Source of the DNA: a virus
Length of the DNA: 42,946 nucleotides
Direction: 5' to 3' (one strand)
Virus genome (UHGV): UHGV-1445076
The notes below the pieces were generated by a model. The model worked only from the letters and a program-made list of their open reading frames with translations. It did no database searches and was not told the DNA's origin. How positions within the stretch are numbered: the stretch's first letter is position 1; each line of letters starts with the position of its first letter. The position numbers were made by a program, and so were the translations under genes. This document shows, piece by piece, positions 19,194-40,089 of the stretch.

Positions 19194-19718
19194 ATGATAA
19201 AGAAAGACGACATAAAGGTTATACTCAAAAGCGCACGGCAGGAGTGGGCTACAGTGAGTGATAAAGACATAGCCTTTGCTGTGCTGTGCGATACGTTCGC
19301 CGATAAATCTGTGGCGTACAAAATGGCGTACGGCAGGACTGCAACGGATGCTGAAGCACACTATCGTGCTCCGAGGATGATAAAATTACGGGATTTGCTT
19401 GAACCTTTCGGCATAGGCTCGGTAAACGAAGAACTTATAACACGTGAGCAGAACAAGACGGAACTTATACGTTTGCTGAAAGAGATAAAGGCTCTTGCGG
19501 AGAGTAAGAAGATTGACGCAAAGGACGCTGTGAAAATGGAGGCAGACATCCGCGTTAAACTAAACGATAAGTTTGAGATGGAAGCCAGCCAGACGCAAAA
19601 ACGCATAATAATCGTGCCCCAAAAGCACGACATGATATGTCCACACACAAACAAAGAGTGTACCTACATGCCGACAAAAGAAGCATGCTTGAAGTATTAC
19701 GGACTTAAAGACGAATGA
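19194..19718 (+). CDS. hypothetical protein (174 aa); weak resemblance to small-terminase-like DNA-binding proteins
   Basis: ATG ORF between terminase and the putative portal; no diagnostic motif. Confidence 0.3.
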   Translation: MIKKDDIKVILKSARQEWATVSDKDIAFAVLCDTFADKSVAYKMAYGRTATDAEAHYRAPRMIKLRDLLEPFGIGSVNEELITREQNKTELIRLLKEIKALAESKKIDAKDAVKMEADIRVKLNDKFEMEASQTQKRIIIVPQKHDMICPHTNKECTYMPTKEACLKYYGLKDE

Positions 19719-21211
19719 AACGCAGTATGAACAGAACACGTGAGGAGATTGTAGAATGGCTGTTGTCCCATCCGGAAGAAATGCTGATGAAGAAGCCGTT
19801 TACAAGAGGTAGCAGTACATATTCTGTGTACGACAACAACTGTGGGGCGGAAGAGAATGTGTCCGCCTTACGTCGGGCTGTGCTTCCAAACGTAATGAAG
19901 ACCATTGTCACACAGGACAAGTTCATGAAAGAACTTGACCCGGACAGCCATGAGGTACTTTTTGACGAAAATATGCCGTCAATTTGTGTCAAAGCCAATG
20001 ACGGAGCATTCTATGAAATAAAGTTCAAGCGTACCGCTCTTGCCTTTCAAGAAAGAATAAGACAAAAAAAGACACTTGCATTATGCGGCAATCCCAGAGT
20101 ATTTACATTGCATGACAGCAATCCTTCCGAAACATTGAAAAAAAACTTTGCTGACCTGAAATGGCATTGGACAGAGCGCAATCAGGACGGATTGGGGACA
20201 AAGGCTGTATACGGGCAGATGGGACTTGGCGACATCGGACTTCTGATGTATTTCAACTATAAAGGTGAAATCAGGGGGCGGATAATATCATACGAGGACG
20301 GATATATCATCATATCACACAACGACGACAACGGTGACCGGGTGATGGAATGTGTATATTATGCCGACGGTGACAACGTGCAGCACATAGACGCATACGA
20401 CGACACGAACCTGTACCGTCTGACGAACGTTGACGGTTGGCATATAGAGAGCCAAGAGGCTCACGGCTTCAGTGAGATACCGCTTATAACAAAGCGCGGT
20501 GATGTCGCATGGAACAACGTACAGAATCTGATAGAAACATTTGAGATTATTTACAACATCTTTACTGTAATAGAAAAGCGTCATGGATGGGGGATTTTAT
20601 ATCTCAAAGGGCGTTTTAAGGAAGACGCCCGTCAGATAGCAGGTTCAATTATGCTTCAAGACGCATCGATTGACGGCAAGGGAGACGCAAAGTTCCTCTC
20701 TCCACCTACAAATGAAGGAATGCTTAATGCGATGCAAGACCTTCTTGACAAGATTCAGATAGGAGCATCCGTAACATTCATCCTTCCCAAGGATGTTAAG
20801 TCAAGCGGGGACATCTCCGGTCTGGCAATGCAAATAACACGTTCTTTCGATATAGAAGGTGCGGCTCAAAACGTAATAGAATGGCAGAATTTTGCGGATA
20901 AACATGCGAGACTTTTCAAGGAAGGATTGGCTAAAGAACTTGTAAATAAAGGTGAGAATCCGAATGCGGTAACAGAATTTGCCAGAATGAAAATATCCTG
21001 CAAGTTTAAAATGTGGCAGCCGTTCGATGAGAATACTTATAACCAGATGCTTTGCACTCTGAAAAGAGCCGGTATCATTTCCACTAAGACGGGAATTGAG
21101 AAAAATACCGTTTCCACTCCTGATGAGGAAATGAGATTGGCTGAAGAGTCAAAACGGAACAAGACTACGGATGGCACAAACAAAAATGCACCTATAAACA
21201 ATGTAGCCTGA
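19715..21211 (+). CDS. putative portal protein (498 aa)
   Basis: Size and position directly downstream of the terminase region, coupled by a 4-nt overlap; no motif-level confirmation. Confidence 0.4.
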   Translation: MKRSMNRTREEIVEWLLSHPEEMLMKKPFTRGSSTYSVYDNNCGAEENVSALRRAVLPNVMKTIVTQDKFMKELDPDSHEVLFDENMPSICVKANDGAFYEIKFKRTALAFQERIRQKKTLALCGNPRVFTLHDSNPSETLKKNFADLKWHWTERNQDGLGTKAVYGQMGLGDIGLLMYFNYKGEIRGRIISYEDGYIIISHNDDNGDRVMECVYYADGDNVQHIDAYDDTNLYRLTNVDGWHIESQEAHGFSEIPLITKRGDVAWNNVQNLIETFEIIYNIFTVIEKRHGWGILYLKGRFKEDARQIAGSIMLQDASIDGKGDAKFLSPPTNEGMLNAMQDLLDKIQIGASVTFILPKDVKSSGDISGLAMQITRSFDIEGAAQNVIEWQNFADKHARLFKEGLAKELVNKGENPNAVTEFARMKISCKFKMWQPFDENTYNQMLCTLKRAGIISTKTGIEKNTVSTPDEEMRLAEESKRNKTTDGTNKNAPINNVA

Positions 21212-23733
21212 TGGAGAAGAAGAGCTTATACATAATGCGTGACACAAACGGAGTGAAAGAATATTTTCCTTCGTCTACAGAAAAAGCGGTCATAGGTACA
21301 TACACCTATGACGCACAACGCATGGACGGCGCACCGACCTTCACGGCTACATTGAAATTCCCAAGATGTCTTGACAATGAATGGACATTAAACGAGTATA
21401 TAGAATTTGGCGGAGAGAAGTATTATATAAGGCAAAAGCCGTCATCATCCAAAGACAATTCTGAGATAACATACAAACATGAGGTCACATTTGTAAGTGA
21501 AAGGGAGATACTTGAAAACGTGTATTTCCTTGATGTGGTGACAGAAGATACTGAAGCCCAATATAAAGACCGATACAGAAGCAACACATCTAAAGTACAT
21601 TTCTTCGGTGATGTACACGAGTTTATTGCCCGGCTCAACGATTCATTGATTTACAGCGGTCTATATAATAAAGACACACAAGAAGGTTTCCATATTGTCA
21701 TTGACGAAGGCATAACTTCTGAGGGCAAAGATGTCAGTATAGAAGACAAGTTCATTGCAGAGGCTCTACAGGATATATATAATGTATATGGACTCGCCTA
21801 TTATTGGACAGGGAAGACCTGCCACGTAGGATATACAGAGAATGTAATAACAACTCCGATAGAATATGGTAATGACAATGCTCTGTTGTCTATTCAGAAA
21901 ACAAATGCCAATTACAGGATTATCACGAGGATAACCGGTACTGGAGGCACAAAAAATTTGCCATGGTACTATCCAAACATGAGTGCGGAGGGCAACGCGA
22001 GTTTCGACACAGAGAACATTGACAAATCTGAAGTAGCAGATATCTCCTTAAATGAGATACTAAAATACAACAGTTCCCCATATACCGCATATAGACTTAA
22101 AAAGGTGTCAAACACGGATGCCAGCGCAGACATCGGGCAGACTGCTCCTTTTTATAATGCATATAGCCCCACAGTAATAAGCAACAGGGAGGCTACAGAC
22201 ATATTCTATTTTGGAACAGGTATAGGCAACACCTATATCACGATATCTTTCAGACTGAAAATAAATGCACAAGAGGGAGACAAACTTCGGTTTGTTTTCA
22301 ATGAATCCTTTTTGACTTTCAGAAAAATCAGCGGTGACGCAGATTTATCACTTTCATGGCAGAAAGTATCGTCAAATAGCTACGGAGGGGACAGAAACCT
22401 TAAAAATACAATAAGTATTGGAATATGGAGAGACGACTATAATCCGAATGAGGATGATTCTATAAGTGATAAAATAGAAATATTGTCAGGTTGGAAGGAC
22501 TATGAATATACCTTCCATGCCAGCGGATGGTTTCAAGTTGTGATTAAAGGGACTGCTTACGCCATTTTCTCAGGAAGCGGAGCGACCAACAGCCAGGCGA
22601 CTATAGGAATGACGTTAAATGCAAAATCATCCATAACATATCAGAAAAGTGGCGGAGAACTGTATTATTTCTCATATGGAGATGGGAATAACATCGCATA
22701 CAGTAAAAGCGGAATAACGCTGTCTGATGTAAACAATGTTCCGTATGCGCCTTCGCATTTGGATTTCTCAGGCGGTGAATGGAATGTTGTGGAGGACAGC
22801 GGTGACCACACACCAGCCATAATTAATATTACAGGAAGAGAGTGGATAACTCCCTCTCAGAGCCTGATGCCCTCTATATACAGAGAAAGTGGAGGAGCGG
22901 AACGCTACTATAATGCAGTCAATAATACATATGAAGATGAATCAGGAAATAAATATATATTTAATAATGTATACAATGAATTGAACCCTCACGAAGGGAC
23001 GACTTCATTTGAAGATATAGTCCCGACAATAAAAGGGATAAAAAACATTCAAGGTCAGTTGATAGGTGAAATAGCTGACATACGGTTTGATACGGATGAT
23101 AGCGATGTCCTTAAAGACAATAGTGACGAATACCTTCATTCATATTTCTATATAAAACTACATGTATATAACGGAAGTGGAGGCTTCAATATTTTTGAGC
23201 ATGCATTAGAAAGCGAAGAGGCTGCAATAGAGATGACAAGCGGCAACTGCGCCGCATGCCGTTTCGTTATCGGGGTGGACAAGTATGCCGATGGTGACAG
23301 ATACAAATTCTATAACCCTGTCATGACAGACGCACAAGGCAATCTTCGCAAGGTCAACAGTTCTAATGCGGACAAATATGAAGGAGACTATATCCTGCCT
23401 TCACGTGATACAAACAGTTACGTTTCACGCCAGCAGGACACCAGCGAATATGAAGTATGGATAGCCGTAAAAAAAGAAACAGATACCTTTGGTGTCATTA
23501 TGCCGAACGCGGCACAAGGATATCGTCCGTCAATAGGCGATACATTTGTCATAACTGGCATTTCTCTTCCTGAATCCTACATACGGGAAGCGGAAAAAAG
23601 ACTGGATGCGGCTCTTATTGCTTACATGAAAGGGAATAATGATGAGAAATTCACATATTCAATAAAATTTTCCCGTGTATATCTGGCATTAAATGAGGAC
23701 TTCACCTCATTGCTGAATGAAAATAAAATATAA
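21211..23733 (+). CDS. large virion protein of uncertain role (840 aa)
   Basis: 2.5-kb ATG ORF, beta-rich Thr/Ser/Asn/Tyr composition, between the putative portal and the fibre genes. Confidence 0.35.
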   Translation: MEKKSLYIMRDTNGVKEYFPSSTEKAVIGTYTYDAQRMDGAPTFTATLKFPRCLDNEWTLNEYIEFGGEKYYIRQKPSSSKDNSEITYKHEVTFVSEREILENVYFLDVVTEDTEAQYKDRYRSNTSKVHFFGDVHEFIARLNDSLIYSGLYNKDTQEGFHIVIDEGITSEGKDVSIEDKFIAEALQDIYNVYGLAYYWTGKTCHVGYTENVITTPIEYGNDNALLSIQKTNANYRIITRITGTGGTKNLPWYYPNMSAEGNASFDTENIDKSEVADISLNEILKYNSSPYTAYRLKKVSNTDASADIGQTAPFYNAYSPTVISNREATDIFYFGTGIGNTYITISFRLKINAQEGDKLRFVFNESFLTFRKISGDADLSLSWQKVSSNSYGGDRNLKNTISIGIWRDDYNPNEDDSISDKIEILSGWKDYEYTFHASGWFQVVIKGTAYAIFSGSGATNSQATIGMTLNAKSSITYQKSGGELYYFSYGDGNNIAYSKSGITLSDVNNVPYAPSHLDFSGGEWNVVEDSGDHTPAIINITGREWITPSQSLMPSIYRESGGAERYYNAVNNTYEDESGNKYIFNNVYNELNPHEGTTSFEDIVPTIKGIKNIQGQLIGEIADIRFDTDDSDVLKDNSDEYLHSYFYIKLHVYNGSGGFNIFEHALESEEAAIEMTSGNCAACRFVIGVDKYADGDRYKFYNPVMTDAQGNLRKVNSSNADKYEGDYILPSRDTNSYVSRQQDTSEYEVWIAVKKETDTFGVIMPNAAQGYRPSIGDTFVITGISLPESYIREAEKRLDAALIAYMKGNNDEKFTYSIKFSRVYLALNEDFTSLLNENKI

Positions 23734-26700
23734 TCAAGAAGAGCATCTTCTGTATGTCAGCAACTATACTTGTAAAGCCGATGATAGCATACTTTATGAA
23801 ATAAGTGTGGATTTAACAGACACCCTGACCGTGTCTCAATCCTCATTCAGAGCACAGCTCGATTCCATAAAAACAGAGATACTTACATCCCTGACTTATG
23901 GCATGCGTGGTGACATTTTAGCACAATGCGCGAAGTATTTTCTGCGGAAAGACAGTCCGGACACAGCCTTGGATATTATAACATTCCTCAAAGGGCTGCT
24001 TGTGGGAGACGGAGACTACGGCATAGATGCGGACGGTACCGCACGGCTGAAGAAACTTCTTGCCGACGAAGCCACAATGAAAACGCTGACCGTGACAGGA
24101 AGGGCACATTTCTTCGAGCTTGTCATAGATGAGCTGAACAGCGTCGGAGGTCAACTGATACTGTCCGCTGCTAACTGCACGGTACGCTCTGTCGAAAGAA
24201 TAAGCGGAGCATGGCGTCTGTGGTGGCTGGCGGAGGACAGCGACGGCAGAGCCGTGCAGAACATGTGGAAGGTCGGAGACCAGGCTCTGGCAATGACATC
24301 CAATCTTGCCGAGGGGACATCATATGATGCAGGAAACAGACTATGGTGGAGACTTGTCACGGCAACAGGGAGCGGAACACGGAACATTGACGGTGAGGAC
24401 AGAAAGTGCCATTGGATTGAAGTGTCTGAAGCCACGTGCGCGGCTGACAGCCTTGAGCCTGCAGAGGGTGACAGCGTTTGTCTGTGCGGACACCGTGGTG
24501 ACGACACAGCGCGCAGCCATGCGATAATAATAGCCGCCCACTCCACTCCGGATACCGAGCTGGAGAGTCCGTCATTCGCGCAATACAACGGAATCACAAG
24601 TTTTTCTCTAAGCCAGTACCGCACGACATGGTTCGCGGCTAACGGCAATAAGATAAGAGGCGAGCTGGATGTGGACACTTCCGGTCTTGTCAGCTACACG
24701 CACCTTGCATGGGGAAACGGTCCGGACGACTGGACAAAGGACAAATCCCAGAGCACGGCAAAAGACTGGCTCATGCTCGGCATATGCACAGACCGCACGG
24801 AGAGCGACGTGGCTCTCGTCTACAGCGACTATGCATGGTCAAGGATTAAAGGTACTGACGGAAAGACCACATACTTCCATGTGAAATATTCTTCAAACGA
24901 GAACGGAAATCCCATGACAGAGACGCCCAACCTCTACATCGGCACATACGTTGACTTCACTGAGGCAGACAGCAACGACCCCTCGGACTACACGTGGTCA
25001 CGCTTCCAAGGATATGACGGGGAGCAGGGGATACCGGGGAAAAACGGTACGGACGGAAAGACAAGCTACCTTCACATCAAATATTCCGACGACGGGGGAA
25101 AGACGTTCACCGCCAGCAACGGTGAGACACCGGGTGCGTGGCTCGGGCAATGCGTAGACTTCAACTCATATGACCCGACAAGCGTTACCTCATATAAGTG
25201 GACACGGATACGCGGTGAGGACGGAGCGGACGGAAGTGACGGTGAACCCGGCACGGACGGGCAGGACGGATTCTCGTGGGCACTTGACCCTGCCGCCATA
25301 ACATTGGAGGCTGACAGTGACGGTGTGGTGAGCATGCAGGATGCGACATCACGTCTGCGCGCATGGCTCGGCACGCGCGAGATGACTGTCACCATTACCG
25401 CCATAGAGCCAGTGCACTGTCTTGCGTCACGCAACGGGGCGCAGGTTACAATAACCGCAATAGGGACATATACGGCAGACTGGGGAGGTTCGGTGCCGTA
25501 CGGAGCGGGATGGGTGCAGATTACGGCACAGGCAACACTGGGAGGAGAGACCCGCAGTGTGAGCTGCCGCCTGTCCTTCACTGTATCGTCCATGGCACTC
25601 TCATCGCAGATTAAGGCTGAGACGGACAGCATAAGCCTTAAAGTCGGCTATCTTGGGGCAAAGGACGGAAACATGGTGACCACTCCTGACATATTCCTGA
25701 CAGGGAACGGGAACAAGACATACACAATCGGGGACATGTCAAGCCTGCGCGGAAAGACAATAACGGTATCATGCCTTGTCAAGACCGTATCCGCGGTTCC
25801 GGCGGCATCTGGCAACAGACGTATCGGCATGGAGCCCATGGTACGGTATGCCGACGGCAGCACGCAGTATCTCGGAACATGGAGGCAGATAACATCCACG
25901 GACACGTTCGAGGGACGCATAAGCTCCACACACAGGATACAGGATAAGGCTGTGGCGTCGGTAGAACAGTGTAACCTGTATATACAGGGCATATCATCAG
26001 GATACTCGTCCGTATCGCGTCCAAAGATAGAGACAGGTGCGGACGCGACAGACTGGGGACTCAGCGCGGAGGACAGGCTTAAAAGACCGAATCTTCTTCC
26101 AGGAACATCGGACTTCAGCCAATGCACCGTACAGGATACCGTAGAGGCAGGAGCATACACGACACCTTACGGAGAAAAAATAAGCGTGGCACACGGTGTG
26201 AACGAAGCCGGGACATCATACAAGGACGTCATCACATGGCGCAACGTGGTGCCCGAGCCGGGCGTACAGTATACGCTCTCATTCTGGGCGCGCGGCACAG
26301 GCAGCATCGGCTCGTACTTCTATCCGAACTGCACCGACTGGGTCACAAGTCCGGGGACGAAGAACCAGACAGGTGTGACAGACGGATTCGTACAGTTCAC
26401 GCTTGAAAGCGGATGGAACCGCTACCAGGTGACATGGAGCACACGCAACGATGTAAGCGGAGCGAAAAGTCTCATAGCGGCACGGCTCATGCCGGACAGT
26501 TCTGCACAGGGAGAGATCTGGATATGCGGAGTGAAGCTGGAGAAAGGCAGCGAGGCGACAGACTGGCGTTCGGAGACAATCACGCACGACGAGCTGCAGG
26601 CGACAGGAATAGACATTGAGCACAAGCGCATAAAGGTCACTGCCGACAACTTCGAGATACAGAACAACTCAGGCGAGACTGTCACCACTGTCGACGAGGC

Positions 26701-27499
26701 GGGCACCCTTACAGGTGTGATGCTCCGCACTATGGACGAAGGACAGGGGCATGTGGAGATAAAGGGAGGACTGATTGAGGTAAAGAACCCTAACGGTGTG
26801 ACCAACATCAAAATGGGATATAACGGCTCATACATGGTACTGTCATATTATGACAATGACGGTACGTTCCTTTATGACCTCGGACCGTGGGGACTGTCCG
26901 GCAAGGATGTCTCGGAAGAACGGTGGGAGACCAGCAGCAAATACGGACGCCTGCAGCTGACAGGGACCACATTCTCCACCGTAGGCGACATCGTTGGCAA
27001 CAAACAGATAATGAACACCATATTCCAATATGGTCATGTGTACACGAAAACACCTTTGTACATGTATCTTGCAGGGCGCGTAAACGACACATATCTCAGC
27101 GGTGACTACGCCTCCACTCCGGAGATTGCAAGAGCCGCGAACGGCAGATGGTTCATGGAGCAGGGTAATGTGACCACGGCACAGGCTGTCACAGGAATGT
27201 GGGCGCAGGACAATCCGGAATCGTTCATGATAGGCTCGCCTATGGACACACCGCCAATGGACTATACGCGATATGAAGATGACTATGCGGAAAAGGTGGA
27301 TTTCTCCAGACAATGGTGCTCGCGCAATGTGTACAGATTCTCGAACATCGGAATCGTACAACCGGGAAGCGGCACCGTATACTACGGCAGCATGATAACG
27401 ACAACAGCCGTATACATGAATTATGACAGGGTGCAGATGATACAGATTAATCGCATTGACGATGATGACACGGACACGAACGGAAACATATATTTATGA
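23717..27499 (+). CDS. putative tail fibre / receptor-binding protein with collagen-like repeats (1260 aa)
   Basis: Three ~57-aa tandem repeats each ending in Gly-X-Y triplets (GTDGKTTY, GKNGTDGKTSY, GEDGADGSDGEPGTDGQDG); markedly GC-rich compared with neighbours. Confidence 0.5.
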   Translation: MKIKYNQEEHLLYVSNYTCKADDSILYEISVDLTDTLTVSQSSFRAQLDSIKTEILTSLTYGMRGDILAQCAKYFLRKDSPDTALDIITFLKGLLVGDGDYGIDADGTARLKKLLADEATMKTLTVTGRAHFFELVIDELNSVGGQLILSAANCTVRSVERISGAWRLWWLAEDSDGRAVQNMWKVGDQALAMTSNLAEGTSYDAGNRLWWRLVTATGSGTRNIDGEDRKCHWIEVSEATCAADSLEPAEGDSVCLCGHRGDDTARSHAIIIAAHSTPDTELESPSFAQYNGITSFSLSQYRTTWFAANGNKIRGELDVDTSGLVSYTHLAWGNGPDDWTKDKSQSTAKDWLMLGICTDRTESDVALVYSDYAWSRIKGTDGKTTYFHVKYSSNENGNPMTETPNLYIGTYVDFTEADSNDPSDYTWSRFQGYDGEQGIPGKNGTDGKTSYLHIKYSDDGGKTFTASNGETPGAWLGQCVDFNSYDPTSVTSYKWTRIRGEDGADGSDGEPGTDGQDGFSWALDPAAITLEADSDGVVSMQDATSRLRAWLGTREMTVTITAIEPVHCLASRNGAQVTITAIGTYTADWGGSVPYGAGWVQITAQATLGGETRSVSCRLSFTVSSMALSSQIKAETDSISLKVGYLGAKDGNMVTTPDIFLTGNGNKTYTIGDMSSLRGKTITVSCLVKTVSAVPAASGNRRIGMEPMVRYADGSTQYLGTWRQITSTDTFEGRISSTHRIQDKAVASVEQCNLYIQGISSGYSSVSRPKIETGADATDWGLSAEDRLKRPNLLPGTSDFSQCTVQDTVEAGAYTTPYGEKISVAHGVNEAGTSYKDVITWRNVVPEPGVQYTLSFWARGTGSIGSYFYPNCTDWVTSPGTKNQTGVTDGFVQFTLESGWNRYQVTWSTRNDVSGAKSLIAARLMPDSSAQGEIWICGVKLEKGSEATDWRSETITHDELQATGIDIEHKRIKVTADNFEIQNNSGETVTTVDEAGTLTGVMLRTMDEGQGHVEIKGGLIEVKNPNGVTNIKMGYNGSYMVLSYYDNDGTFLYDLGPWGLSGKDVSEERWETSSKYGRLQLTGTTFSTVGDIVGNKQIMNTIFQYGHVYTKTPLYMYLAGRVNDTYLSGDYASTPEIARAANGRWFMEQGNVTTAQAVTGMWAQDNPESFMIGSPMDTPPMDYTRYEDDYAEKVDFSRQWCSRNVYRFSNIGIVQPGSGTVYYGSMITTTAVYMNYDRVQMIQINRIDDDDTDTNGNIYL
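24692..25280 (+). repeat. three ~57-aa tandem protein repeats with collagen-like Gly-X-Y runs
   Basis: Repeats begin SYTHLAWGNG.., TYFHVKYSSNENG.., SYLHIKYSDDGGK.. and each ends ..Y(T/K)W(S/T)R(F/I)(K/Q/R)G + (G-X-Y)n. Confidence 0.55.
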
Positions 27500-27521
27500 T
27501 AAAAAAACAGGAGGACAGTAT

Positions 27522-27629
27522 ATGACATTGACAACATTGAACTTTTCCAAGACCGGAGGCTTGTGGCATGCGGAATGGACACATGGCGGTGAGGGAATAT
27601 TACAGATAGACGGTGAGCCGGAACAGTAA
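27522..27629 (+). CDS. small ORF (35 aa)
   Basis: ATG at 27522 preceded by AGGAGG (27509-27514) at 7-nt spacing; below the size cut-off of the ORF track. Confidence 0.2.
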   Translation: MTLTTLNFSKTGGLWHAEWTHGGEGILQIDGEPEQ

Positions 27630-27645
27630 AGAAAGGAGACAGACC

Positions 27646-28299
27646 ATGAGACGTATAAGAATAGGAAACGACATCATTCTGCGCATAAGGCTTACACGCC
27701 GTGGCGGTGCAGAGAACCTCGAGGGAAAGAAAATAGGTCTTATGCTGCGCAACATTCTCGGCAGTGTGAGCCTTCTTGTAGTACAGTCAGGAGGGGAGCT
27801 GATAGCAGGATGGCAGGGCACACAGCAGCAGTGGACAGGTGCGTATACAGTGACACTCACAGAGGATTGGGGCGAGAACAACCGCAACACCGTGGATGAG
27901 GCATGCGCCTTCGAGCTTGTGTCAATAAGCAGCGACGAGGGTGTGGAGACCGGCACCGTGAACATCGAGCTTGACATGGACATCAGCGTGCCGGGCAACG
28001 GTCTGTCCGCCTATGAGATAGCCGTGCTGCACGGCTTTGAGGGCACAGAAGAAGAATGGCTGGAGAGTTTAAAGCCCGACACGAGTAATTTTGTGACAAC
28101 CGAACAAGTAGCGGAAGACTATCAGCCAAAGGGAGATTATGTTACAGAAGCACCTAAGGATGGGAAAAACTATGTACGGAAAGATGGAAGCTGGACTGAG
28201 TTTGCAGGAAGTGGAAAAGCTAATGCCTTTTTTTCGAATAATATCCTTAAATTTGAGAGCGGAGGAGCACAATTTAACAACAACATATTAATAATTTGA
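27646..28299 (+). CDS. tail fibre protein (217 aa)
   Basis: Track ORF starts at GTG 27613; ATG at 27646 preceded by AGGAG. Contains GLSAYEIAVLHGFEGTEEEWLESLK and QPKGDYVT...DGKNYVRKDGSWTE motifs typical of phage fibre proteins. Confidence 0.5.
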   Translation: MRRIRIGNDIILRIRLTRRGGAENLEGKKIGLMLRNILGSVSLLVVQSGGELIAGWQGTQQQWTGAYTVTLTEDWGENNRNTVDEACAFELVSISSDEGVETGTVNIELDMDISVPGNGLSAYEIAVLHGFEGTEEEWLESLKPDTSNFVTTEQVAEDYQPKGDYVTEAPKDGKNYVRKDGSWTEFAGSGKANAFFSNNILKFESGGAQFNNNILII

Positions 28300-33075: not shown

Positions 33076-34131
33076 ATGAAATGTGAGCAGCTAACATTCG
33101 CAAGGGAATACAGGGGATTTACGCAAACCGCACTCGCGGCAAAAGTCAAAGGGCTATCGCAATCCAACCTGTCAAAATATGAAAAGGGGTTTGGCGGGCT
33201 GTCAGACAACATGCTTAGTTTGATTATGTCCACGCTTGATTTTCCGATGAAATTCCTTGACATGAATATTGTGAACAAGGTTGACAGCAAGCATTACAGG
33301 AAAAAGGCAACCATAACCGTAAAGACACGCAACGAGATAGACAGGACAATATCCCTGATTGCGTATTGTTTTGATTGGCTTAGTGAATTTGTCGAGATAC
33401 CTGACTATTCATTTGGATACTACGACATGGACAACGGCATAAGCCCGGAGGAACTTGCCGGGCACATAAGGAACAAATACAGGCTCGGCATGTCGCCTAT
33501 ATCCGATATTTGCAATTTCCTTGAGCGCAATGGGGTATTCATTTACATGTGGGACAGTCCTAACGACGAGTTTGACGGGGTATCCCTGATAACTGACGCA
33601 GGCAATCATCTTATCATTGTGAACAGGAACAGAAGCAACGACAGGGTAAGGTTTACGCTTGCACATGAGCTGGGACACATACTGATGCACGAGTGCCCAA
33701 GTTTCCCGGTATTCAGCATTAGAGACAAGGAGAAAGAGGCGAACGCTTTTGCATCAGAGTTCCTTCTCCCCTCCCAGGCTGTCAGAAACGCCTTGCACAA
33801 TGTCAGGCTCGGACAGTTCCCTGAGCTGAAACGGTATTGGCTTGTTTCCATGGCATCACTTTTGGAAAAGGCAAAAAACATAAACGCCATTGCAAGTGAG
33901 AAGTACAAGTCTATGAGAATGGAGTTCAGCAGACGCCATTGGAATAAGAAAGAACCTTACGAAGTGCCTATTGACAGCCCTACCGTCTTTGAGCAGGCAT
34001 ATAGGCTGGTATCGGACACATTGGGGTATTCAATCAGCATGATTTCGGAAAGCACAGGCTTGCCCGAGGATGTCTTGATAAAGATATTCGGCAAATCTGC
34101 GAGGATAATATCATTAAAGCCACTAATATAA
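33076..34131 (+). CDS. fused XRE-type HTH / ImmA-IrrE family (M78-like) zinc metallopeptidase
   Basis: N-terminal HTH (FTQTALAAKVKGLSQSNLSKYEKG) and C-terminal HExxH in FTLAHELGHILMHE with a downstream Glu, the arrangement seen in ImmA/IrrE peptidases. Confidence 0.7.
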   Translation: MKCEQLTFAREYRGFTQTALAAKVKGLSQSNLSKYEKGFGGLSDNMLSLIMSTLDFPMKFLDMNIVNKVDSKHYRKKATITVKTRNEIDRTISLIAYCFDWLSEFVEIPDYSFGYYDMDNGISPEELAGHIRNKYRLGMSPISDICNFLERNGVFIYMWDSPNDEFDGVSLITDAGNHLIIVNRNRSNDRVRFTLAHELGHILMHECPSFPVFSIRDKEKEANAFASEFLLPSQAVRNALHNVRLGQFPELKRYWLVSMASLLEKAKNINAIASEKYKSMRMEFSRRHWNKKEPYEVPIDSPTVFEQAYRLVSDTLGYSISMISESTGLPEDVLIKIFGKSARIISLKPLI

Positions 34132-34213: not shown

Positions 34214-34723
34214 ATGGGAAGATTTAAAGGATTGCTTGTGGTAGTATCGGTGTTGTTGACCGCATCATTATGCGTCAACATACTCCAGTGCAGTAATGCC
34301 GGAAAGAAAACAACGAATCAGGACACAGTACGGACTACATATATAGACACCATTCCGTTCTTGAATCCTGTACCCAAAGACAGTACGGTGATACGGTATG
34401 TTACGGAGACGTTGCCCGTGACTTGCCGCAAAGACACGATATACGAAGAGAAGGGCGGGAATACAGGCGACAGCGTCAAGGTGACACTGCCTATAACTTC
34501 CAAAGTCTATAAGGACAGTACCTATACCGCATACGTGAGCGGATTCCGCGCGAATCTTGACAGTATATTTGTATATCCGAGACACGAGACTGTAACTGTC
34601 ACAAGGTACAAGGAAAGTCCGCGCCTTGGCGTCGGTATTGCCGCAGGTTACGGTATAGGGAAAGACATGAAACCGACACCTTTCATAGGAATATCCGTAT
34701 ATTATAGGCTTTGGCAGTGGTAG
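34214..34723 (+). CDS. secreted or membrane-associated protein with N-terminal signal sequence (169 aa)
   Basis: N-terminus MGRFKGLLVVVSVLLTASLCVNILQCSNA has a basic n-region, hydrophobic core and Cys/Ala cleavage-like region; Thr/Val/Tyr-rich mature part. Confidence 0.4.
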   Translation: MGRFKGLLVVVSVLLTASLCVNILQCSNAGKKTTNQDTVRTTYIDTIPFLNPVPKDSTVIRYVTETLPVTCRKDTIYEEKGGNTGDSVKVTLPITSKVYKDSTYTAYVSGFRANLDSIFVYPRHETVTVTRYKESPRLGVGIAAGYGIGKDMKPTPFIGISVYYRLWQW

Positions 34724-34929: not shown

Positions 34930-35320
34930 CAGATTCCTCCTTTTCTGAGTTTATAGATACGAACAATCTCTCGTAGTCATCACAACTGATTTCAAAGCAG
35001 TTCTGACTTATTACTCCGTCAGAATCCCCGAAAACGTAAAACGGGGTATACGGACTGTATGTCTTCAGGACACCCACATCCTTTTTGTTGTCCTGCCTGT
35101 GTCTGATATAGAACCAGTAATGAGGTCTTTTGTAACCGACACACCATAGCAGCATAAGGACAAACAACAAGAAGAAAAAACAGAAAAACCATTTCGGCAG
35201 GAAAACGTCAATCAGAAAGAATGTAACCCATGCCGTTACCATTACGGCGAAAGCCTCAAAAGATGTCTTGTAATCAAAATTTTTCATTTTCATAATATGT
35301 TTAATATTTCTTATTCCCAT
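34910..35320 (-). CDS. small membrane protein
   Basis: Hydrophobic segments AVMVTAWVTFFLIDVF and WFFCFFFLLFVLMLLWCV; alternative ATGs at 35293 and 35287 avoid overlap with the upstream gene. Confidence 0.3.
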   Translation of the reverse strand: MGIRNIKHIMKMKNFDYKTSFEAFAVMVTAWVTFFLIDVFLPKWFFCFFFLLFVLMLLWCVGYKRPHYWFYIRHRQDNKKDVGVLKTYSPYTPFYVFGDSDGVISQNCFEISCDDYERLFVSINSEKEESDDTDAK

Positions 35321-35855
35321 GCTTAAATGGGCGGAGTCTGTTATAGCGCATCTTCTGCTCGACGTAGAAGTCGATGTCGATATCGTTTTGGTGGCAGAAT
35401 AAGATAATGAGGGCTACAGTGAGATTGATTTTTTCGCAAAGGGCTTCCTTATATAAACAAAGTCCCTCACAAAGATGGTACATGACGACGGGGAATGGCT
35501 CATTAATGAATTTTGCGTCTGAAGCAAGAAACTCGTCAACGTAATGCAGGGATATTCCGCGCAGTGCAGCCAAGTCCAAACAGCGTATGATGATGTCGCT
35601 AAGTTCATCCTCAACCGAGTTTTTGACGTGTGTCTCAAATTCATACTTAAATACAACGTCGTCATCGGCGTATGTTCCAAGTAATGCTTTGAAAAGGTCA
35701 ATGTCCGTGTGCCTGTCCTTGCGGTCTGCCTGTACAGCTTCAGATATCTCAGTAATGATAAGCATCAAATAAGTTTCGTCAGGCAGTTCTTCATCGTGCC
35801 ATCCGTGCGTCTTTGCGGTCTCAAAAACTGCTTTTGATAATTTAGTCAAATCCAT
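35301..35855 (-). CDS. MazG-like nucleotide pyrophosphohydrolase (all-alpha NTP-PPase) candidate
   Basis: HGWHDEELPDETYLMLIITEISEAVQA and VEDELSDIIIRCLDLAALRGISL fit the paired acidic-helix pattern of MazG/dimeric dUTPase-like enzymes. Confidence 0.45.
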   Translation of the reverse strand: MDLTKLSKAVFETAKTHGWHDEELPDETYLMLIITEISEAVQADRKDRHTDIDLFKALLGTYADDDVVFKYEFETHVKNSVEDELSDIIIRCLDLAALRGISLHYVDEFLASDAKFINEPFPVVMYHLCEGLCLYKEALCEKINLTVALIILFCHQNDIDIDFYVEQKMRYNRLRPFKHGNKKY

Positions 35856-35908: not shown

Positions 35909-36655
35909 TCACTGCGACGCGCACTCGCTTTCAAGCTCGTTCCAATCCTCGTCGGTAATGTATTTGCGGCATTCAGGATTAAGCTTCAACGCCTCATAGC
36001 CGACACGGTTGAGGAAACGCTCGCTCGTCAGCTTCTTCTCTATGATACGGAAGGCGAGCATGGCGTTGGCGTCCTTGTTCAGGTCTATGGTTATCCCGTC
36101 CTCGGTCTTGCATATCATGTCCGCAGCCTGCTCAAAATGGTAGAGGGTGCGTGACAGCCGCGCAGGATTCATGTATTTGTCAAAATGAATGCCGGGCGCG
36201 GCTTCGTCAGCCGTCTTTATCTGCACATCGTAAAGATGTACCGCGTATGCCAGAAGATTGCGGGCGGTCTCGACATAGGACTTAAGCTCCGTTTCGGTCT
36301 GCCTGTACTTGTCGAGCAGCGACTTTATGGAGAAGCGCAGGATGTCGACATGCGGCTGTATGTCCTCCTCCACTGTGTCAAGATAGTCATAGAAGAGCTG
36401 CGTGCGGTCTCCGAAGTTCTGGATGTGAAGCTTCTCGTAGGCGTAGTACGCCCTCTCCGCTTCCCTGATGTGACGCTTCAGAGTGAAACGGTAGTACGGT
36501 GTCTTCCGTACTCTCTCTATGGCGTCGAACATTGTCTTGCCCGCCACTGTGTTGGCGGCTCCTATAACAAGGTTGACGAGTGAGTTGAGACGCTCGAACA
36601 CCTCCATCGCGCGCTGGCTGCTCACTGCCGTAGCCTGTCGTACGTATGCTGTCAT
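35909..36655 (-). CDS. hypothetical protein (248 aa)
   Basis: ATG ORF, helical; 4-nt overlap with the upstream gene. Confidence 0.4.
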   Translation of the reverse strand: MTAYVRQATAVSSQRAMEVFERLNSLVNLVIGAANTVAGKTMFDAIERVRKTPYYRFTLKRHIREAERAYYAYEKLHIQNFGDRTQLFYDYLDTVEEDIQPHVDILRFSIKSLLDKYRQTETELKSYVETARNLLAYAVHLYDVQIKTADEAAPGIHFDKYMNPARLSRTLYHFEQAADMICKTEDGITIDLNKDANAMLAFRIIEKKLTSERFLNRVGYEALKLNPECRKYITDEDWNELESECASQ

Positions 36656-37624: not shown

Positions 37625-37789
37625 TTATCTTGTGATTTTAGAGGAAATTTTCCTTGTATTTCCTTTGTTTTCCTTTGCCAAACACTCATTGCCACATCTT
37701 CTGCCCACGTCGTACTTATCGCACCATCCGTCTCCGTAGAAGCCTTCGTTAATGAAGTGGATACATGAGCCGCAGTGTCTTGCTTTCAT
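37625..37789 (-). CDS. small Cys-rich ORF (54 aa), coupled to the PP-loop gene
   Basis: ATG at 37789-37787 overlaps the stop of the upstream gene (ATGA); translation MKARHCGSCIHF...GWCDKYDVGRRCGNECL, TAA at 37627-37625. Below the ORF-track size cut-off. Confidence 0.25.
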   Translation of the reverse strand: MKARHCGSCIHFINEGFYGDGWCDKYDVGRRCGNECLAKENKGNTRKISSKITR

Positions 37790-38703
37790 TTTTCGTCGTC
37801 TTTAAATTCAAATTTCTGTTGCAGGAACTCGTCAGCGTAGAACTGCTTGTAGCTCTTGTCGCTTATCCACCACCTAAAGCCTGTTTCAGCGTCGTTGAAA
37901 TTGTGGTCGATATATCCGTTGTCTATCAGCCATTGGATTGTCTTTATCCAATTGCGTTTGACGTGCGGCCAGCGTTTAGCATCTTCCTTCTTTATCCGTG
38001 CGTTCGACATAGGGCAACAGATGCAGCCAATGCGTGTATAACCCTCGTCGTAGAGTTCGCAGTGTGGTATGCCGTTCATGTTAAGGAACTCCCACACGTC
38101 GCGCTCCGTCCAATAGATTATGGGCGATACAAGGATTTTGTCCTTACCGCCGACACACGCAACCATGCTCTCCTCATGTTCGCTCCATTGGTCAAAGGTT
38201 TCCTCATTGCGCTTGCCCTTTATCTCTGTGGATATTTCCTCACGTTTTGCACGCCGTGCGCTTTCTTCTTTTCTCACACCGATAAGTGTCACCTTGCCAA
38301 CGCCTGACGTTTCCTTGAACTCGGCACAACACCAACGCAAAGTCCTTGTCGGCAAGATGTGCTTTTTCTTCGCCATTTCGTAAATGCTCATCCGTGGTTT
38401 GATTAGCTCCACATCGGGGTATTGCGTCTTGACGAAGCGGATGACTTCGGGCGGGTCTATGCTCGTAAGGTTCATGTGAGCCTTGAAGCGGACACCGGCC
38501 AGCTTTGCGACATGGTAGAGGCATTGGCTGTCCTTGCCGCCACTGAACGCAAGGTAAAAGCCGTTTTCGGGGTCGAGGCGCAACGCCATTTTCTCCGACT
38601 TCCGCAAAAGTTCGACGGAGTGTTCCAGCTTCCTTGCAAGCGGACGGCTTACCTTTGACATTACGGTGTCGTGGTCAAGCAGTATTATTTCACACGCTTT
38701 CAT
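37786..38703 (-). CDS. PP-loop ATP pyrophosphatase, PAPS-reductase-like (CysH/DndC-like) protein
   Basis: YLAFSGGKDSQCL carries the SGGxDS PP-loop motif; C-terminal Cys cluster RIGCICCPMS; 305 aa. Confidence 0.65.
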   Translation of the reverse strand: MKACEIILLDHDTVMSKVSRPLARKLEHSVELLRKSEKMALRLDPENGFYLAFSGGKDSQCLYHVAKLAGVRFKAHMNLTSIDPPEVIRFVKTQYPDVELIKPRMSIYEMAKKKHILPTRTLRWCCAEFKETSGVGKVTLIGVRKEESARRAKREEISTEIKGKRNEETFDQWSEHEESMVACVGGKDKILVSPIIYWTERDVWEFLNMNGIPHCELYDEGYTRIGCICCPMSNARIKKEDAKRWPHVKRNWIKTIQWLIDNGYIDHNFNDAETGFRWWISDKSYKQFYADEFLQQKFEFKDDEK

Positions 38704-38828
38704 TTTGCCTTGTCTTTAAGTTTGAATATAAATTCCATCAGTTGTTTGTTCTGCTGGCGGTACCTGTCAACCTCGGCTTGCAGGAAGTCAATCTCGTTGT
38801 GGTACGCCTCACGCTCAAAGTCAGTCAT
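38700..38828 (-). CDS. small helical ORF (42 aa), coupled to the PP-loop gene
   Basis: Hand translation MTDFEREAYHNEIDFLQAEVDRYRQQNKQLMEFIFKLKDKAK; its TGA overlaps the ATG of the downstream gene. Confidence 0.25.
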   Translation of the reverse strand: MTDFEREAYHNEIDFLQAEVDRYRQQNKQLMEFIFKLKDKAK

Positions 38829-38834
38829 CGTTCA

Positions 38835-38981
38835 CTAATCGTCTACAATGGCTTTTGCTAAACCGAAGAGAAGGATATATATTCCTAACATGAGCAGTAC
38901 CCATGGGAAACTTGTCAACATCCATATAGAGGCTGCCACGCAAAGTGCACCGGCATGGATGATTAGTTCAGTTCTGTTCAT
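38835..38981 (-). CDS. small two-helix membrane ORF (48 aa), coupled to the radical SAM gene
   Basis: Hand translation MNRTELIIHAGALCVAASIWMLTSFPWVLLMLGIYILLFGLAKAIVDD; ATG overlaps the radical SAM stop (ATGA). Confidence 0.25.
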   Translation of the reverse strand: MNRTELIIHAGALCVAASIWMLTSFPWVLLMLGIYILLFGLAKAIVDD

Positions 38982-39883
38982 TGCTTCATATTTTTAAGTT
39001 TGTAACTATTCTCATTAAGCCACTTTTGGAAATACCATAACTGACCGCATCCGCCACCTATATCGTCTTGCCCTGCCGGGTTAAATACTCTCGTATTAAA
39101 ACCTACGTCATTCATCTTTGAATTAAAGTCACGGATTAAGTCAAGTTGTCGCTGTATTGATGAATGTACACTTTCATCCTTTTCGCAAATAACAGACAAA
39201 GTGACCTCCCATATATCAGGGTTAAATAATTCAGAGAGCCTCATAGCATCTTCCATATCATTATTCCCGACATGTACGCAATAATTAAAGAAAGGCTTTC
39301 TTCCGACATAAGAAGCCCAAAACTCACCCGTAGAAGCTATTTGCCGAAGTGTTGACGTATTCGTTGCTATAAGTTTCTTCCTTTTTTCATCTGTACTTTC
39401 ATGTACTGAAAATTGAAGACCTACTTTATCTATTTCTTTCGATAGTGCAATAAAATCAGACATGTATAAATACATCATGTGAGGGGCAGAAGTGCTTACA
39501 AGAAGTTGTGCGTTTGGATATTTCACATGTAGACTTTCTATTGCAGGCTGCAATGCCGAGTAGTTGTAAAAAGGCTCTCCCATGCTCATAAACATAATTT
39601 GGAACTTTTTAATGTCATCAGTGCGGCAATCAATAGTAGATAATGCCCCATCAATCTGTTGTATTATTTCGTCAGTAGAAAGATTTCTGACAAAAAATTT
39701 GCCTGTTCCGCAGAAAGAACATCCAACTGGACAACCGCTTTGAACCGAACAACATATAACTGTCCTTTTTTTGTATTCTCCATATCTATAAAGAACAGTT
39801 TCAGCAATAGCATTTGGCTTGTCCCACTCAAACACGAATTTCTTTACATTCGTATCACTTGATTCAAATACTTTTGTTTTCAT
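38978..39883 (-). CDS. radical SAM enzyme, RlmN/Cfr-like minimal form (301 aa)
   Basis: CCSVQSGCPVGCSFCGTG carries Cys51-X3-Cys55-X2-Cys58 in the S-Q-x-G-C-xxx-C-x-F-C-x-T pattern of RlmN/Cfr; MSMGEP motif; C-terminal GGGCGQL resembles the second mechanistic cysteine motif of RlmN. Confidence 0.65.
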   Translation of the reverse strand: MKTKVFESSDTNVKKFVFEWDKPNAIAETVLYRYGEYKKRTVICCSVQSGCPVGCSFCGTGKFFVRNLSTDEIIQQIDGALSTIDCRTDDIKKFQIMFMSMGEPFYNYSALQPAIESLHVKYPNAQLLVSTSAPHMMYLYMSDFIALSKEIDKVGLQFSVHESTDEKRKKLIATNTSTLRQIASTGEFWASYVGRKPFFNYCVHVGNNDMEDAMRLSELFNPDIWEVTLSVICEKDESVHSSIQRQLDLIRDFNSKMNDVGFNTRVFNPAGQDDIGGGCGQLWYFQKWLNENSYKLKNMKQ

Positions 39884-40089
39884 TTGCCGTATGTTTTTGT
39901 TTTCTTGGGTTTGTAACTATCGGTTTCTTCGTCCCACTCCACGCAGTCGGGGCAGTAGAGTTTGCCGTCGATTTCTTCCCAATCGCACATCTTCGCCATA
40001 TACCTTGCCATACCTTCACTAAATTCATAGCCATGCTTACTTCCGCACCCGTCGCACACGGCTTGGTACATCGTCACTTTCTGTTTCAT
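39880..40089 (-). CDS. small zinc-ribbon protein (69 aa)
   Basis: CDGCGS...CPDC paired CxxC motifs; its stop overlaps the radical SAM start by 4 nt. Confidence 0.4.
   Translation of the reverse strand: MKQKVTMYQAVCDGCGSKHGYEFSEGMARYMAKMCDWEEIDGKLYCPDCVEWDEETDSYKPKKTKTYGK

Follow-up and report, generated by a model that had tools for sequence, protein, structure and literature searches.

The window analysed here is a stretch of 42,946 nucleotides from a virus (UHGV virus genome UHGV-1445076). It corresponds to IMGVR_UViG_3300045988_136180. Between positions 37,625 and 40,089 it carries a compact block of six open reading frames (ORFs). Two of them encode enzymes: a radical S-adenosylmethionine (SAM) protein of the RlmN/Cfr type, called rSAM below, and a PP-loop protein of the phosphoadenosine phosphosulfate (PAPS) reductase superfamily, called PAPS-like. 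The other four, zn69, tm48, cc42 and cys54, are small. All six ORFs that an initial annotation of this DNA had listed are present on the minus strand, and their coordinates stand. Lengths are given in amino acids (aa).

39880-40089, minus strand: zn69, a 69-aa zinc-ribbon ORF (CxxC...CxxC) with weak matches to DUF7569 and phrog_17873.
38978-39883, minus strand: rSAM, a 301-aa class-A (RlmN/Cfr-type) radical SAM protein without the N-terminal accessory domain.
38835-38981, minus strand: tm48, a 48-aa ORF with two hydrophobic segments, inside the exchanged rSAM cassette.
38700-38828, minus strand: cc42, a 42-aa predicted coiled-coil ORF.
37786-38703, minus strand: PAPS-like, a 305-aa orphan PP-loop protein with the PAPS-reductase fold, of the BrxP/DndC/SspD kind.
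37625-37789, minus strand: cys54, a 54-aa Cys-rich ORF downstream of the PAPS-like gene.
38829-39901: mosaic cassette of rSAM plus tm48, absent from the sister phage L050, where other ORFs take its place (blastn).
35301-35855, minus strand: a MazG-like nucleotide pyrophosphatase in the same operon (phrog_9236 at 2.5e-47, PF12643 weak), which is context and not part of a module.

The initial annotation had proposed these genes as a candidate module for DNA hypermodification or for reprogramming host rRNA or tRNA. Spelled out, the radical SAM protein and the PP-loop enzyme would work one after the other, translated together with the small ORFs, to build a single hypermodified base in phage DNA or host RNA. 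The layout gives this proposal some appeal: the genes are neighbours on the same strand, they are joined by ATGA overlaps, and both encode iron-sulfur (Fe-S) enzymes of superfamilies that modify nucleobases or nucleic acids. The evidence from related phages makes it very likely instead that these are two unrelated, independently exchanged accessory genes, which sit in one long, packed phage operon and share no pathway.

The packing of the block does not mark a module. ATGA overlaps occur at four of its five junctions, as had been claimed, the exception being the step from tm48 to cc42, where a gap of 6 nucleotides separates the ORFs. Five further junctions of the surrounding 18-gene co-directional operon show the same overlap. 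Translational coupling is therefore not specific to the block, and it fails as an argument for a module. The rSAM and PAPS-like genes lie 275 base pairs (bp) apart, and a promoter and terminator scan of the operon gave a result no better than shuffled sequence. For cys54, no family match was found among Pfam and PHROG profiles.

Linkage was assessed on the loci around relatives of each protein, taken from viral contigs and public assemblies. The loci were scored with family hidden Markov models built from alignments and then grouped into lineages by a threshold of 90% identity in the anchor protein. Within 10 kilobases (kb) of rSAM, 5 of 66 rSAM lineages (124 loci) carry a PAPS-like gene; within 3 kb the number falls to three. 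Seen from the PAPS-like gene, rSAM turns up inside the 10-kb range in 3 of 59 lineages (108 loci). The conserved co-occurrence in related phages that the initial annotation had proposed as a check is thus seen from neither side.

Comparison with the sister phage L050 (IMGVR_UViG_3300045988_148138 type), whose flanks match at 95-98% identity, shows where the block comes apart. In a blastn alignment the L050 sequence follows the window at 95.7% identity between 41236 and 39902, shows no similarity from 39901 to 38829, and picks up again at 38828 with 96.6%. After a 915-bp insertion, 94.8% identity resumes and continues through the PAPS-like gene and cys54. L050 replaces the rSAM cassette with ORFs of 49, 61, 62 and 101 aa and a 54-aa membrane peptide, a tm48 analogue that is 41% identical and occupies the same position. 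It retains zn69 at 98% identity, cc42 at 90% amino-acid identity, and PAPS-like and cys54 at 92% and 87% identity, all without rSAM. The coding status of cc42, which matches L050 at 96.6% nucleotide identity, is putative, and only one of six public annotations of the window phage calls it as a gene. The insertion makes the junction between cc42 and PAPS-like a second exchange point; it holds, at L050:9091-9901, Cys-containing ORFs of 190 and 96 aa that have no Pfam match.

The converse arrangement also exists. Loci L002-L004, the one other phage lineage in which zn69 travels with rSAM, carry zn69 (75% identical) and rSAM (82% identical) with no PAPS-like gene, and the zn69 and rSAM block keeps 75% nucleotide identity to L002 between flanks that are unrelated. 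Base composition differs as well, with a GC content of 0.366 for rSAM and 0.498 for PAPS-like in an operon at about 0.45. The ORFs zn69, tm48, cc42 and cys54 are not dedicated partners of rSAM.

The co-occurrence data largely refute the sequential action of the two enzymes on one base, which is now very improbable. Neither gene predicts the other, and the sister phage without rSAM keeps the PAPS-like gene and all four small ORFs or their analogues. The ATGA overlaps run operon-wide, GC content and mosaic histories differ, and each gene has its own distinct preferred neighbours. A two-enzyme hypermodification module would have been a new pathway; the evidence indicates chance juxtaposition.

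Several points weigh on the other side. Co-occurrence was scored within 10 kb to either side on metagenomic viral contigs, so that partners farther away would be missed. Three lineages, namely the window, L006/L076 and L023/L112, hold both genes within 3 kb, which speaks for a module, and the PAPS-like proteins of the latter two are 31% and 25% identical. A weak attraction between rSAM and PAPS-like genes, for example through shared anti-defence islands, may exist. The structure model of the PAPS-like protein is also poor, with a predicted local distance difference test (pLDDT) score of 48 from an alignment of 30 sequences that are 77-96% identical.

Curated profiles, a match in the PDB, the fold and the mechanistic cysteines agree that rSAM belongs to the RlmN/Cfr family, as first proposed. 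The protein matches the RlmN model TIGR00048 at 5.9e-28 (97.8 bits against a cut-off of 290; model positions 73-342 of 355) and the Cfr models at about 1e-19 to 2e-21 (70-77 bits against cut-offs of 468-550). These scores fall far below the curated equivalog cut-offs, reaching about one third of the cut-off for RlmN, and the PF04055 match (3.3e-6) is just below the gathering score. The best sequence relatives among solved structures are RlmN and Cfr, with the PDB entry for RlmN 6fz6 at 2e-18. An AlphaFold model of rSAM has a pLDDT of 85 and a predicted template modelling (TM) score of 0.85. Foldseek searches of the PDB with this model return RlmN structures as the top five matches (TM 0.67-0.71, E 6e-16 to 7e-13), followed by SuiB at 2e-5. 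The C-terminal Cys loop of the model is flexible, with pLDDT below 50 at residues 275-281.

An alignment of the window protein with E. coli RlmN and 37 distinct phage homologues locates the catalytic residues. The cluster motif, of the pattern GCxxxCxFC, reads GCPVGCSFC at residues 50-58 and is invariant in 33 close and 25 diverse homologues. Seven residues before it, C44 (the first cysteine of ICCS) aligns with E. coli C118, while C279 (GGGCGQL) aligns with E. coli C355, the methyl carrier. Neither of these two cysteines varies among 38 phage sequences, and in the most diverse set both are conserved to 90% or more. All five mechanistic cysteines (the equivalents of E. coli C118, C125, C129, C132 and C355) are thus kept, and since all catalytic residues are invariant, the complete catalytic apparatus of a class-A methyl synthase is retained.

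The main structural difference lies at the N-terminus. The accessory domain (HhH2-like, about 60-80 residues) is absent, and residues 1-80 of E. coli RlmN have no counterpart. Lacking this domain and scoring below the curated cut-offs, rSAM is best filed as a phage-specific variant of class-A radical SAM methylases, neither RlmN nor Cfr proper. The isoelectric point of the family (median 5.9 against 6.6 for E. coli RlmN) and its charge are uninformative about nucleic-acid binding.

RlmN and Cfr work by a ping-pong mechanism in which SAM methylates a C-terminal cysteine, followed by radical addition to adenine. The retained catalytic residues suggest that rSAM would do the same. One SAM would methylate the C-terminal cysteine of GGGCGQL, and cleavage of a second at the CxxxCxxC [4Fe-4S] cluster would generate a 5'-deoxyadenosyl radical. 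This radical would take a hydrogen from the methylated cysteine, producing a Cys-CH2 radical that could add to C2 or C8 of an adenine ring. The upstream cysteine in ICCS would then resolve the covalent adduct. We infer this chemistry, its possible substrates and the counter-defence roles discussed below for both proteins.

Truncated RlmN/Cfr homologues form a very widespread phage family, with thousands of clusters that include gut phages of Bacteroidales as well as lytic phages infecting Salmonella, Vibrio, Stenotrophomonas and Aeromonas. Searches with rSAM return 5605 clusters at E<=1e-3, and the best 120 are all at least 69% identical and about 295 aa long. In a library clustered at 50% identity, 74 clusters score below 1e-30, most of them 280-320 aa with a match starting at residue 1-25, and canonical RlmN (345-400 aa) appears only at about 1e-20 with 30-35% identity. 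The nearest PHROGs family is listed as 'unknown function'. Cultured lytic phages carry relatives of about 50% identity: Salmonella Arash, Stenotrophomonas ANB28 and BUCTxx99, Xanthomonas JGB6, eight Vibrio phages, Aeromonas Ahp1 and a 462-kb megaphage.

Such a distribution bears on whether rSAM could be a Cfr-like resistance determinant, forming m8A2503 and carried as a lysogenic-conversion gene. The match to Cfr profiles reaches 2e-21, and relatives do occur in prophages, such as L001, a 568-kb bacterial contig where the gene adjoins CI-like and RecT genes. Against this, the 70-77 bits fall far from the Cfr cut-offs and are lower than the RlmN score. The family is also frequent among large phages of Salmonella, Vibrio, Stenotrophomonas and Aeromonas that are strictly lytic, and the gene sits within co-directional early or accessory operons, not as an autonomous moron. 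A resistance role of this type is highly improbable.

No neighbour is universal to the rSAM family within the loci scored. The commonest neighbouring family is a Nampt-type phosphoribosyltransferase (PF18127+PF04095), found in 13 of 66 lineages, 11 of them within 2.5 kb and with a median gap of -185 bp, and often accompanied by a Prs-type gene. In about 11 divergent phage lineages, rSAM stands between or beside Prs-like and Nampt-like genes, the pairs that make up NARP1/NARP2-type operons. Four examples illustrate the arrangement:

L021:7534-12430: rSAM between Prs-like and Nampt-like genes (Prs-rSAM-Nampt).
L126:8624-12498: the same order, Prs-rSAM-Nampt.
L118:8271-12661: rSAM between the two with other genes (Nampt-x-rSAM-...-Prs).
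L071 (Vibrio phage 496E54-1, OX241444.1 88790-92483): rSAM beside the pair (Prs-Nampt-rSAM).

L120 shares the order of L118, and L122, L132 and L146 show Nampt-rSAM. With GC contents of 0.30-0.59 and rSAM identities of 48-75% among these loci, a single block of conserved synteny does not account for the linkage.

NAD-salvage genes of another kind accompany rSAM in the large clade nearest to the window protein (74% identical, 22 loci). Its gene order is ThyX...Metallophos-rSAM-133aa-Metallophos-isochorismatase-NAPRTase-NAD synthase. The isochorismatase (PncA-like), NAPRTase (PncB-like) and NAD synthase (NadE) constitute a Preiss-Handler-type salvage set for nicotinamide adenine dinucleotide (NAD+), distinct from NARP1/NARP2. 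At L009:6788-15811 (IMGVR_UViG_3300045988_127419) and in about 34 related large gut-phage loci, the ThyX, Metallophos, rSAM, Metallophos, isochorismatase, NAPRTase and NAD synthase genes lie on one strand.

At least one NAD-salvage gene accompanies rSAM in 19 of 64 lineages; among 57 control lineages of similar locus length the count is 0 (Fisher p=1.4e-6). Prs-like and Nampt-like pairs form the NARP1/NARP2 counter-defence pathways, which occur in 5.4% of phages (10.1101/2024.02.11.579819), and extra enzymes in NARP1 operons feed the pathway, as described for RyDEP (10.64898/2026.05.28.727677) and a phosphatase (10.64898/2026.01.28.702374). The NARP1/NARP2 accounts consulted do not mention a radical SAM gene. 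Our literature searches found no report of rSAM beside Prs or Nampt genes and no description of a phage RlmN-like or Cfr-like enzyme. The linkage of the rSAM family to phage NAD+ salvage operons thus appears to be unreported so far.

Transfer RNA genes form another recurrent context. They lie within 10 kb of rSAM in 20 of 66 lineages, against one clean tRNA across 19 PAPS-like loci in a rough control. The commonest is tRNA-Gln(UUG), and E. coli RlmN modifies tRNA-Gln. At L018:2717-9415 and L041:2464-9414, on contigs of megaphage size (135 and 355 kb), arrays of 31-38 tRNAs end about 600 bp upstream of rSAM, and in Stenotrophomonas phage ANB28 (L069) the gene lies within a tRNA cluster.

Domain fusions add a further clue. 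Among more distant relatives that are likewise truncated at the N-terminus, P0250 and P0339 (468 and 464 aa) carry fused MutT/NudI-like NUDIX domains, and in P0324 (759 aa) a truncated RlmN-like domain is fused to a dGTP triphosphohydrolase. An assignment of the NUDIX partners as ADP-ribose pyrophosphatases failed; these domains look MutT/NudI-like. Three relatives of 51-53% identity (P0243, P0245 and P0246) carry N-terminal extensions of 85-110 residues that have no Pfam match and do not resemble the N-terminal domain of RlmN; these may dock the substrate in another way, or the gene starts may have been called wrongly. Two other candidate partners were set aside: homologues of the MazG-like pyrophosphatase occur equally in PAPS-only loci, and a Band-7/SPFH 'prohibitin', annotated under the match in two phage records, is not a recurrent neighbour.

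Together, these observations frame the choice of substrate. An RNA adenine, either tRNA A37 or 23S A2503, is tentatively the favoured target, by analogy with RlmN and on account of homology, the tRNA linkage and a slow stoichiometric chemistry. Methylation of such a site could perhaps protect or optimise translation during infection. A DNA substrate has no specific support and is improbable.

The gene context and fusions raise a different possibility, namely that rSAM serves as an accessory enzyme in NAD+ reconstitution by the phage or in a counter-defence that acts on the nucleotide pool. The adenine that it methylates would then belong to a free nucleotide, such as adenosine diphosphate ribose (ADPR), NAD+, ATP/dATP or an adenine-based immune signal, and not to RNA. 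The position of rSAM beside Prs-like and Nampt-like genes in about 11 divergent lineages agrees with this, as do the PncA/PncB/NadE set adjoining it in the closest large clade, the excess of NAD-salvage genes over controls and the fusions to NUDIX and dGTP triphosphohydrolase domains. The loss of the domain that RlmN uses for RNA docking points the same way, and the enzymes inserted in NARP1 operons provide a precedent. If true, a class-A radical SAM methyl synthase would be known to act on a small molecule for the first time, and the arms race between phage and host over NAD+ would gain a new layer.

Other considerations make a free adenine nucleotide or NAD+-derived molecule a somewhat unlikely substrate. 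To our knowledge, no class-A radical SAM methylase acts on a small molecule. The two-SAM mechanism with its covalent adduct is slow, which would suit stoichiometric RNA sites better than metabolite pools, and the gain from methylating NAD+ or ADPR is not evident. The same islands carry tRNA arrays, so the linkage may reflect anti-defence or auxiliary islands only. The NAD controls are smaller gut phages, and phage type therefore confounds the p value. No Nampt, Prs, isochorismatase, NUDIX or tRNA gene was found in the window phage; carrying the context over from its relatives is an extrapolation, and rSAM function evidently needs no such partners in cis. It is doubtful that short phage RlmN/Cfr-like enzymes in general serve counter-defence by C-methylating the adenine ring of a free nucleotide alongside NAD+ reconstitution or nucleotide-pool pathways. 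Once found, the rSAM substrate would reveal either phage tRNA/rRNA modification within the counter-defence repertoire or new radical SAM chemistry on nucleotides.

The second enzyme belongs, as the initial annotation had stated, to the PP-loop ATPases of the PAPS-reductase superfamily with an SGGKDS motif. It matches PF01507 at 3.3e-22 (79.8 bits against a cut-off of 22.5, residues 51-231) and phrog_424 at 4e-39. Among defence models, its best PADLOC match is BrxP (2.3e-16), covering only model positions 134-352 of 779, followed by SspD (0.008), and it scores 15 bits against the DndC model TIGR03183, whose cut-off is 290. Judged by these profiles, the protein falls in the known phage 'PAPS reductase-like' group and matches BrxP, SspD and DndC only partly. 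Across the phage family, residues S54-G-G-K-D-S59, C125-C126 and C227/C230 (RWCC...GCxxCP) show either no variation or at least 90% conservation. By comparison with adenosine phosphosulfate (APS) reductase and DndC, these cysteines would bind a cluster.

Another reading takes the gene for a true auxiliary metabolic gene of the CysH type, by which the phage would raise sulfate assimilation in its host. The PF01507 match, the labels 'phosphoadenosine phosphosulfate reductase' or cysH on relatives in JGI and GenBank records, and the PHROG category 'auxiliary metabolic gene' all favour it. The residues do not. Aligned to E. coli CysH, the protein has a canonical SGGKDS loop where CysH has SSSFGIQ; it lacks the ECGLH catalytic cysteine motif, the phage family ending in an unrelated helical tail, and it carries the conserved CC...CxxC cysteines of Fe-S type. 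Matches to CysH and to APS- and PAPS-reductase profiles cover only the C-terminal half and remain at 49.7 bits for TIGR00434 (cut-off 165), 41.4 for TIGR02057 (254) and 49.4 for NF002537 (154). The best match in the defence library is BrxP, and the gene is linked to DNA methyltransferases, not to sulfur genes. An ordinary sulfate-assimilation CysH, which the initial annotation had named as an outcome that would count against its proposal, is extremely improbable.

The same annotation had set the block apart from the known 7-deazaguanine cassette, and this distinction holds: rSAM is RlmN-like and not QueE, and the PP-loop protein is PAPS-like and not QueC. No FolE, QueD, QueE, QueC or DpdA/TGT was found among the 28 window ORFs scanned with Pfam.

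The genes that do accompany PAPS-like are of another kind. Its commonest neighbour is an N6/N4 DNA methyltransferase of about 250 aa (PF01555), which occurs in 16 of 59 lineages but in just 1 of 108 rSAM-only loci; in four lineages it directly adjoins the gene. L055:9246-9998 is one example of this methyltransferase; the commonest downstream neighbour is a DUF551 protein. In a fuller contig of the window phage, a C5 DNA methylase lies about 5 kb upstream of the PAPS-like gene in the same operon, and in Methanosarcina virus MetMV a DNA modification methylase lies about 1 kb downstream of the homologue. A tblastn search of the window found no N6/N4 methyltransferase; the ORF g248 (35909-36655) was considered as a candidate for the methyltransferase that often lies upstream of PAPS-like genes and ruled out (E=3). 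No DndD/SspC/BrxC-type nucleoside triphosphatase (NTPase) or cysteine desulfurase was found among the called genes of six contigs of the window phage, nor among the window ORFs scanned, and neither is a recurrent neighbour in the 59 PAPS-like lineages.

Published systems give this pattern a plausible meaning. A vibriophage escapes host Dnd by means of an insert of two genes, which includes a fusion of a PAPS domain to Dam (10.1101/2021.05.05.442762), and PAPS reductases occur in Aca-regulated anti-defence operons and variable regions (10.64898/2026.07.27.740549). One study reports that in Bacteroides BrxP and the NTPase BrxC together make phosphorothioate DNA, that this synthesis depends on the NTPase partner, and that gut genomes are enriched in BREX type 4 (PMC12914056).

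The PAPS-like protein is probably an orphan [4Fe-4S]/PP-loop ATP pyrophosphatase of the BrxP/DndC/SspD kind. It would most likely act on, or interfere with, DNA self-marking of the phosphorothioation type, as a form of counter-defence. It might borrow host partners to mark phage DNA, or it might disturb the phosphorothioation system by which the host tells self from non-self. Such a role would require partner proteins of the host, because the phage supplies none. The DNA-modification or anti-restriction role proposed at the outset is therefore plausible for the PAPS-like gene alone, given the BrxP match, the N6/N4 methyltransferase linkage and the published anti-Dnd case, and it does not stand as the joint work of two enzymes. 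The gene adds a further example from gut Bacteroidales phages of a family suspected of subverting the immunity that relies on phosphorothioates (Dnd, Ssp, BREX type 4), a kind of defence that is enriched in the gut microbiome.

The wider genome provides context. When the nucleotide sequence of the block was compared with 50,697 GenBank phages, no relative turned up, and the one match covered 123 bp at 71%. In a fuller ENA contig of the same phage (L043:1-4979), the operon continues upstream beyond the end of the window contig, with genes for an FtsK/PD-(D/E)XK protein, DUF3127, DUF4494, VRR-NUC and DUF7833 proteins and the C5 DNA methylase. Two genes on the other strand adjoin the operon at its low-coordinate (3') end and converge with it: one for an HTH_3 plus Peptidase_M78 (ImmA/IrrE-like) protein at 33076-34131 (plus strand) and one for a DUF6808 protein at 34214-34723 (plus strand). 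This pair may be the regulatory switch of a temperate phage.

Elsewhere in the window, TerL lies at 17556-19178 and an SPP1-type portal at 19715-21211. A 1915-aa ORF at 5932-11679 (minus strand), near the structural genes, is presumably a tail or tape-measure protein. Positions 24001-28000 have a GC content of 0.53-0.56 against about 0.45 elsewhere, inside a 1260-aa ORF at 23717-27499 (plus strand) that several long antisense ORFs overlap. No tRNA genes were found in the window.

Compared with known systems, rSAM stands closest to RlmN (23S rRNA m2A2503 and tRNA m2A37) and Cfr (m8A2503), with which it shares the core fold (TM 0.67-0.71), the CxxxCxxC motif, the MGEP SAM-binding motif and the equivalents of C118 and C355. 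Unlike them, it lacks the N-terminal domain of about 80 residues, and it is only 20-26% identical to RlmN. In contrast to canonical RlmN of 345-400 aa, its family is phage-borne and forms a separate clade, with NAD-salvage and tRNA-array neighbours and some NUDIX or dGTPase fusions. The NARP1/NARP2 operons and their 'extended' forms resemble the loci of relatives in which Prs-like and Nampt-like pairs flank rSAM, and the extra enzymes inserted there have published synergy. The window phage differs from NARP1/NARP2 phages in lacking Prs and Nampt genes, and a functional link is a possibility raised by gene linkage.

The PAPS-like protein shares with BrxP (BREX type 4), SspD and DndC the PAPS-reductase fold, the canonical SGGKDS PP-loop and the conserved cysteines. 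Unlike these proteins, it consists of the PAPS domain only, with no DUF4007/SspB-like part and none of the extra domains of BrxP. Systems of the BrxP/SspD/DndC type are frequent in gut Bacteroidota (PMC12914056), which are the likely host group of the window phage. The nearest phage parallel is the vibriophage fusion of a PAPS domain to Dam (Piel et al., 10.1101/2021.05.05.442762), which is likewise a phage-encoded orphan PAPS domain in a variable accessory region with a DNA methyltransferase association. The likeness is one of domain and context: whereas the vibriophage protein is fused to its methyltransferase, the PAPS-like protein stands alone, in a window where no methyltransferase was found.

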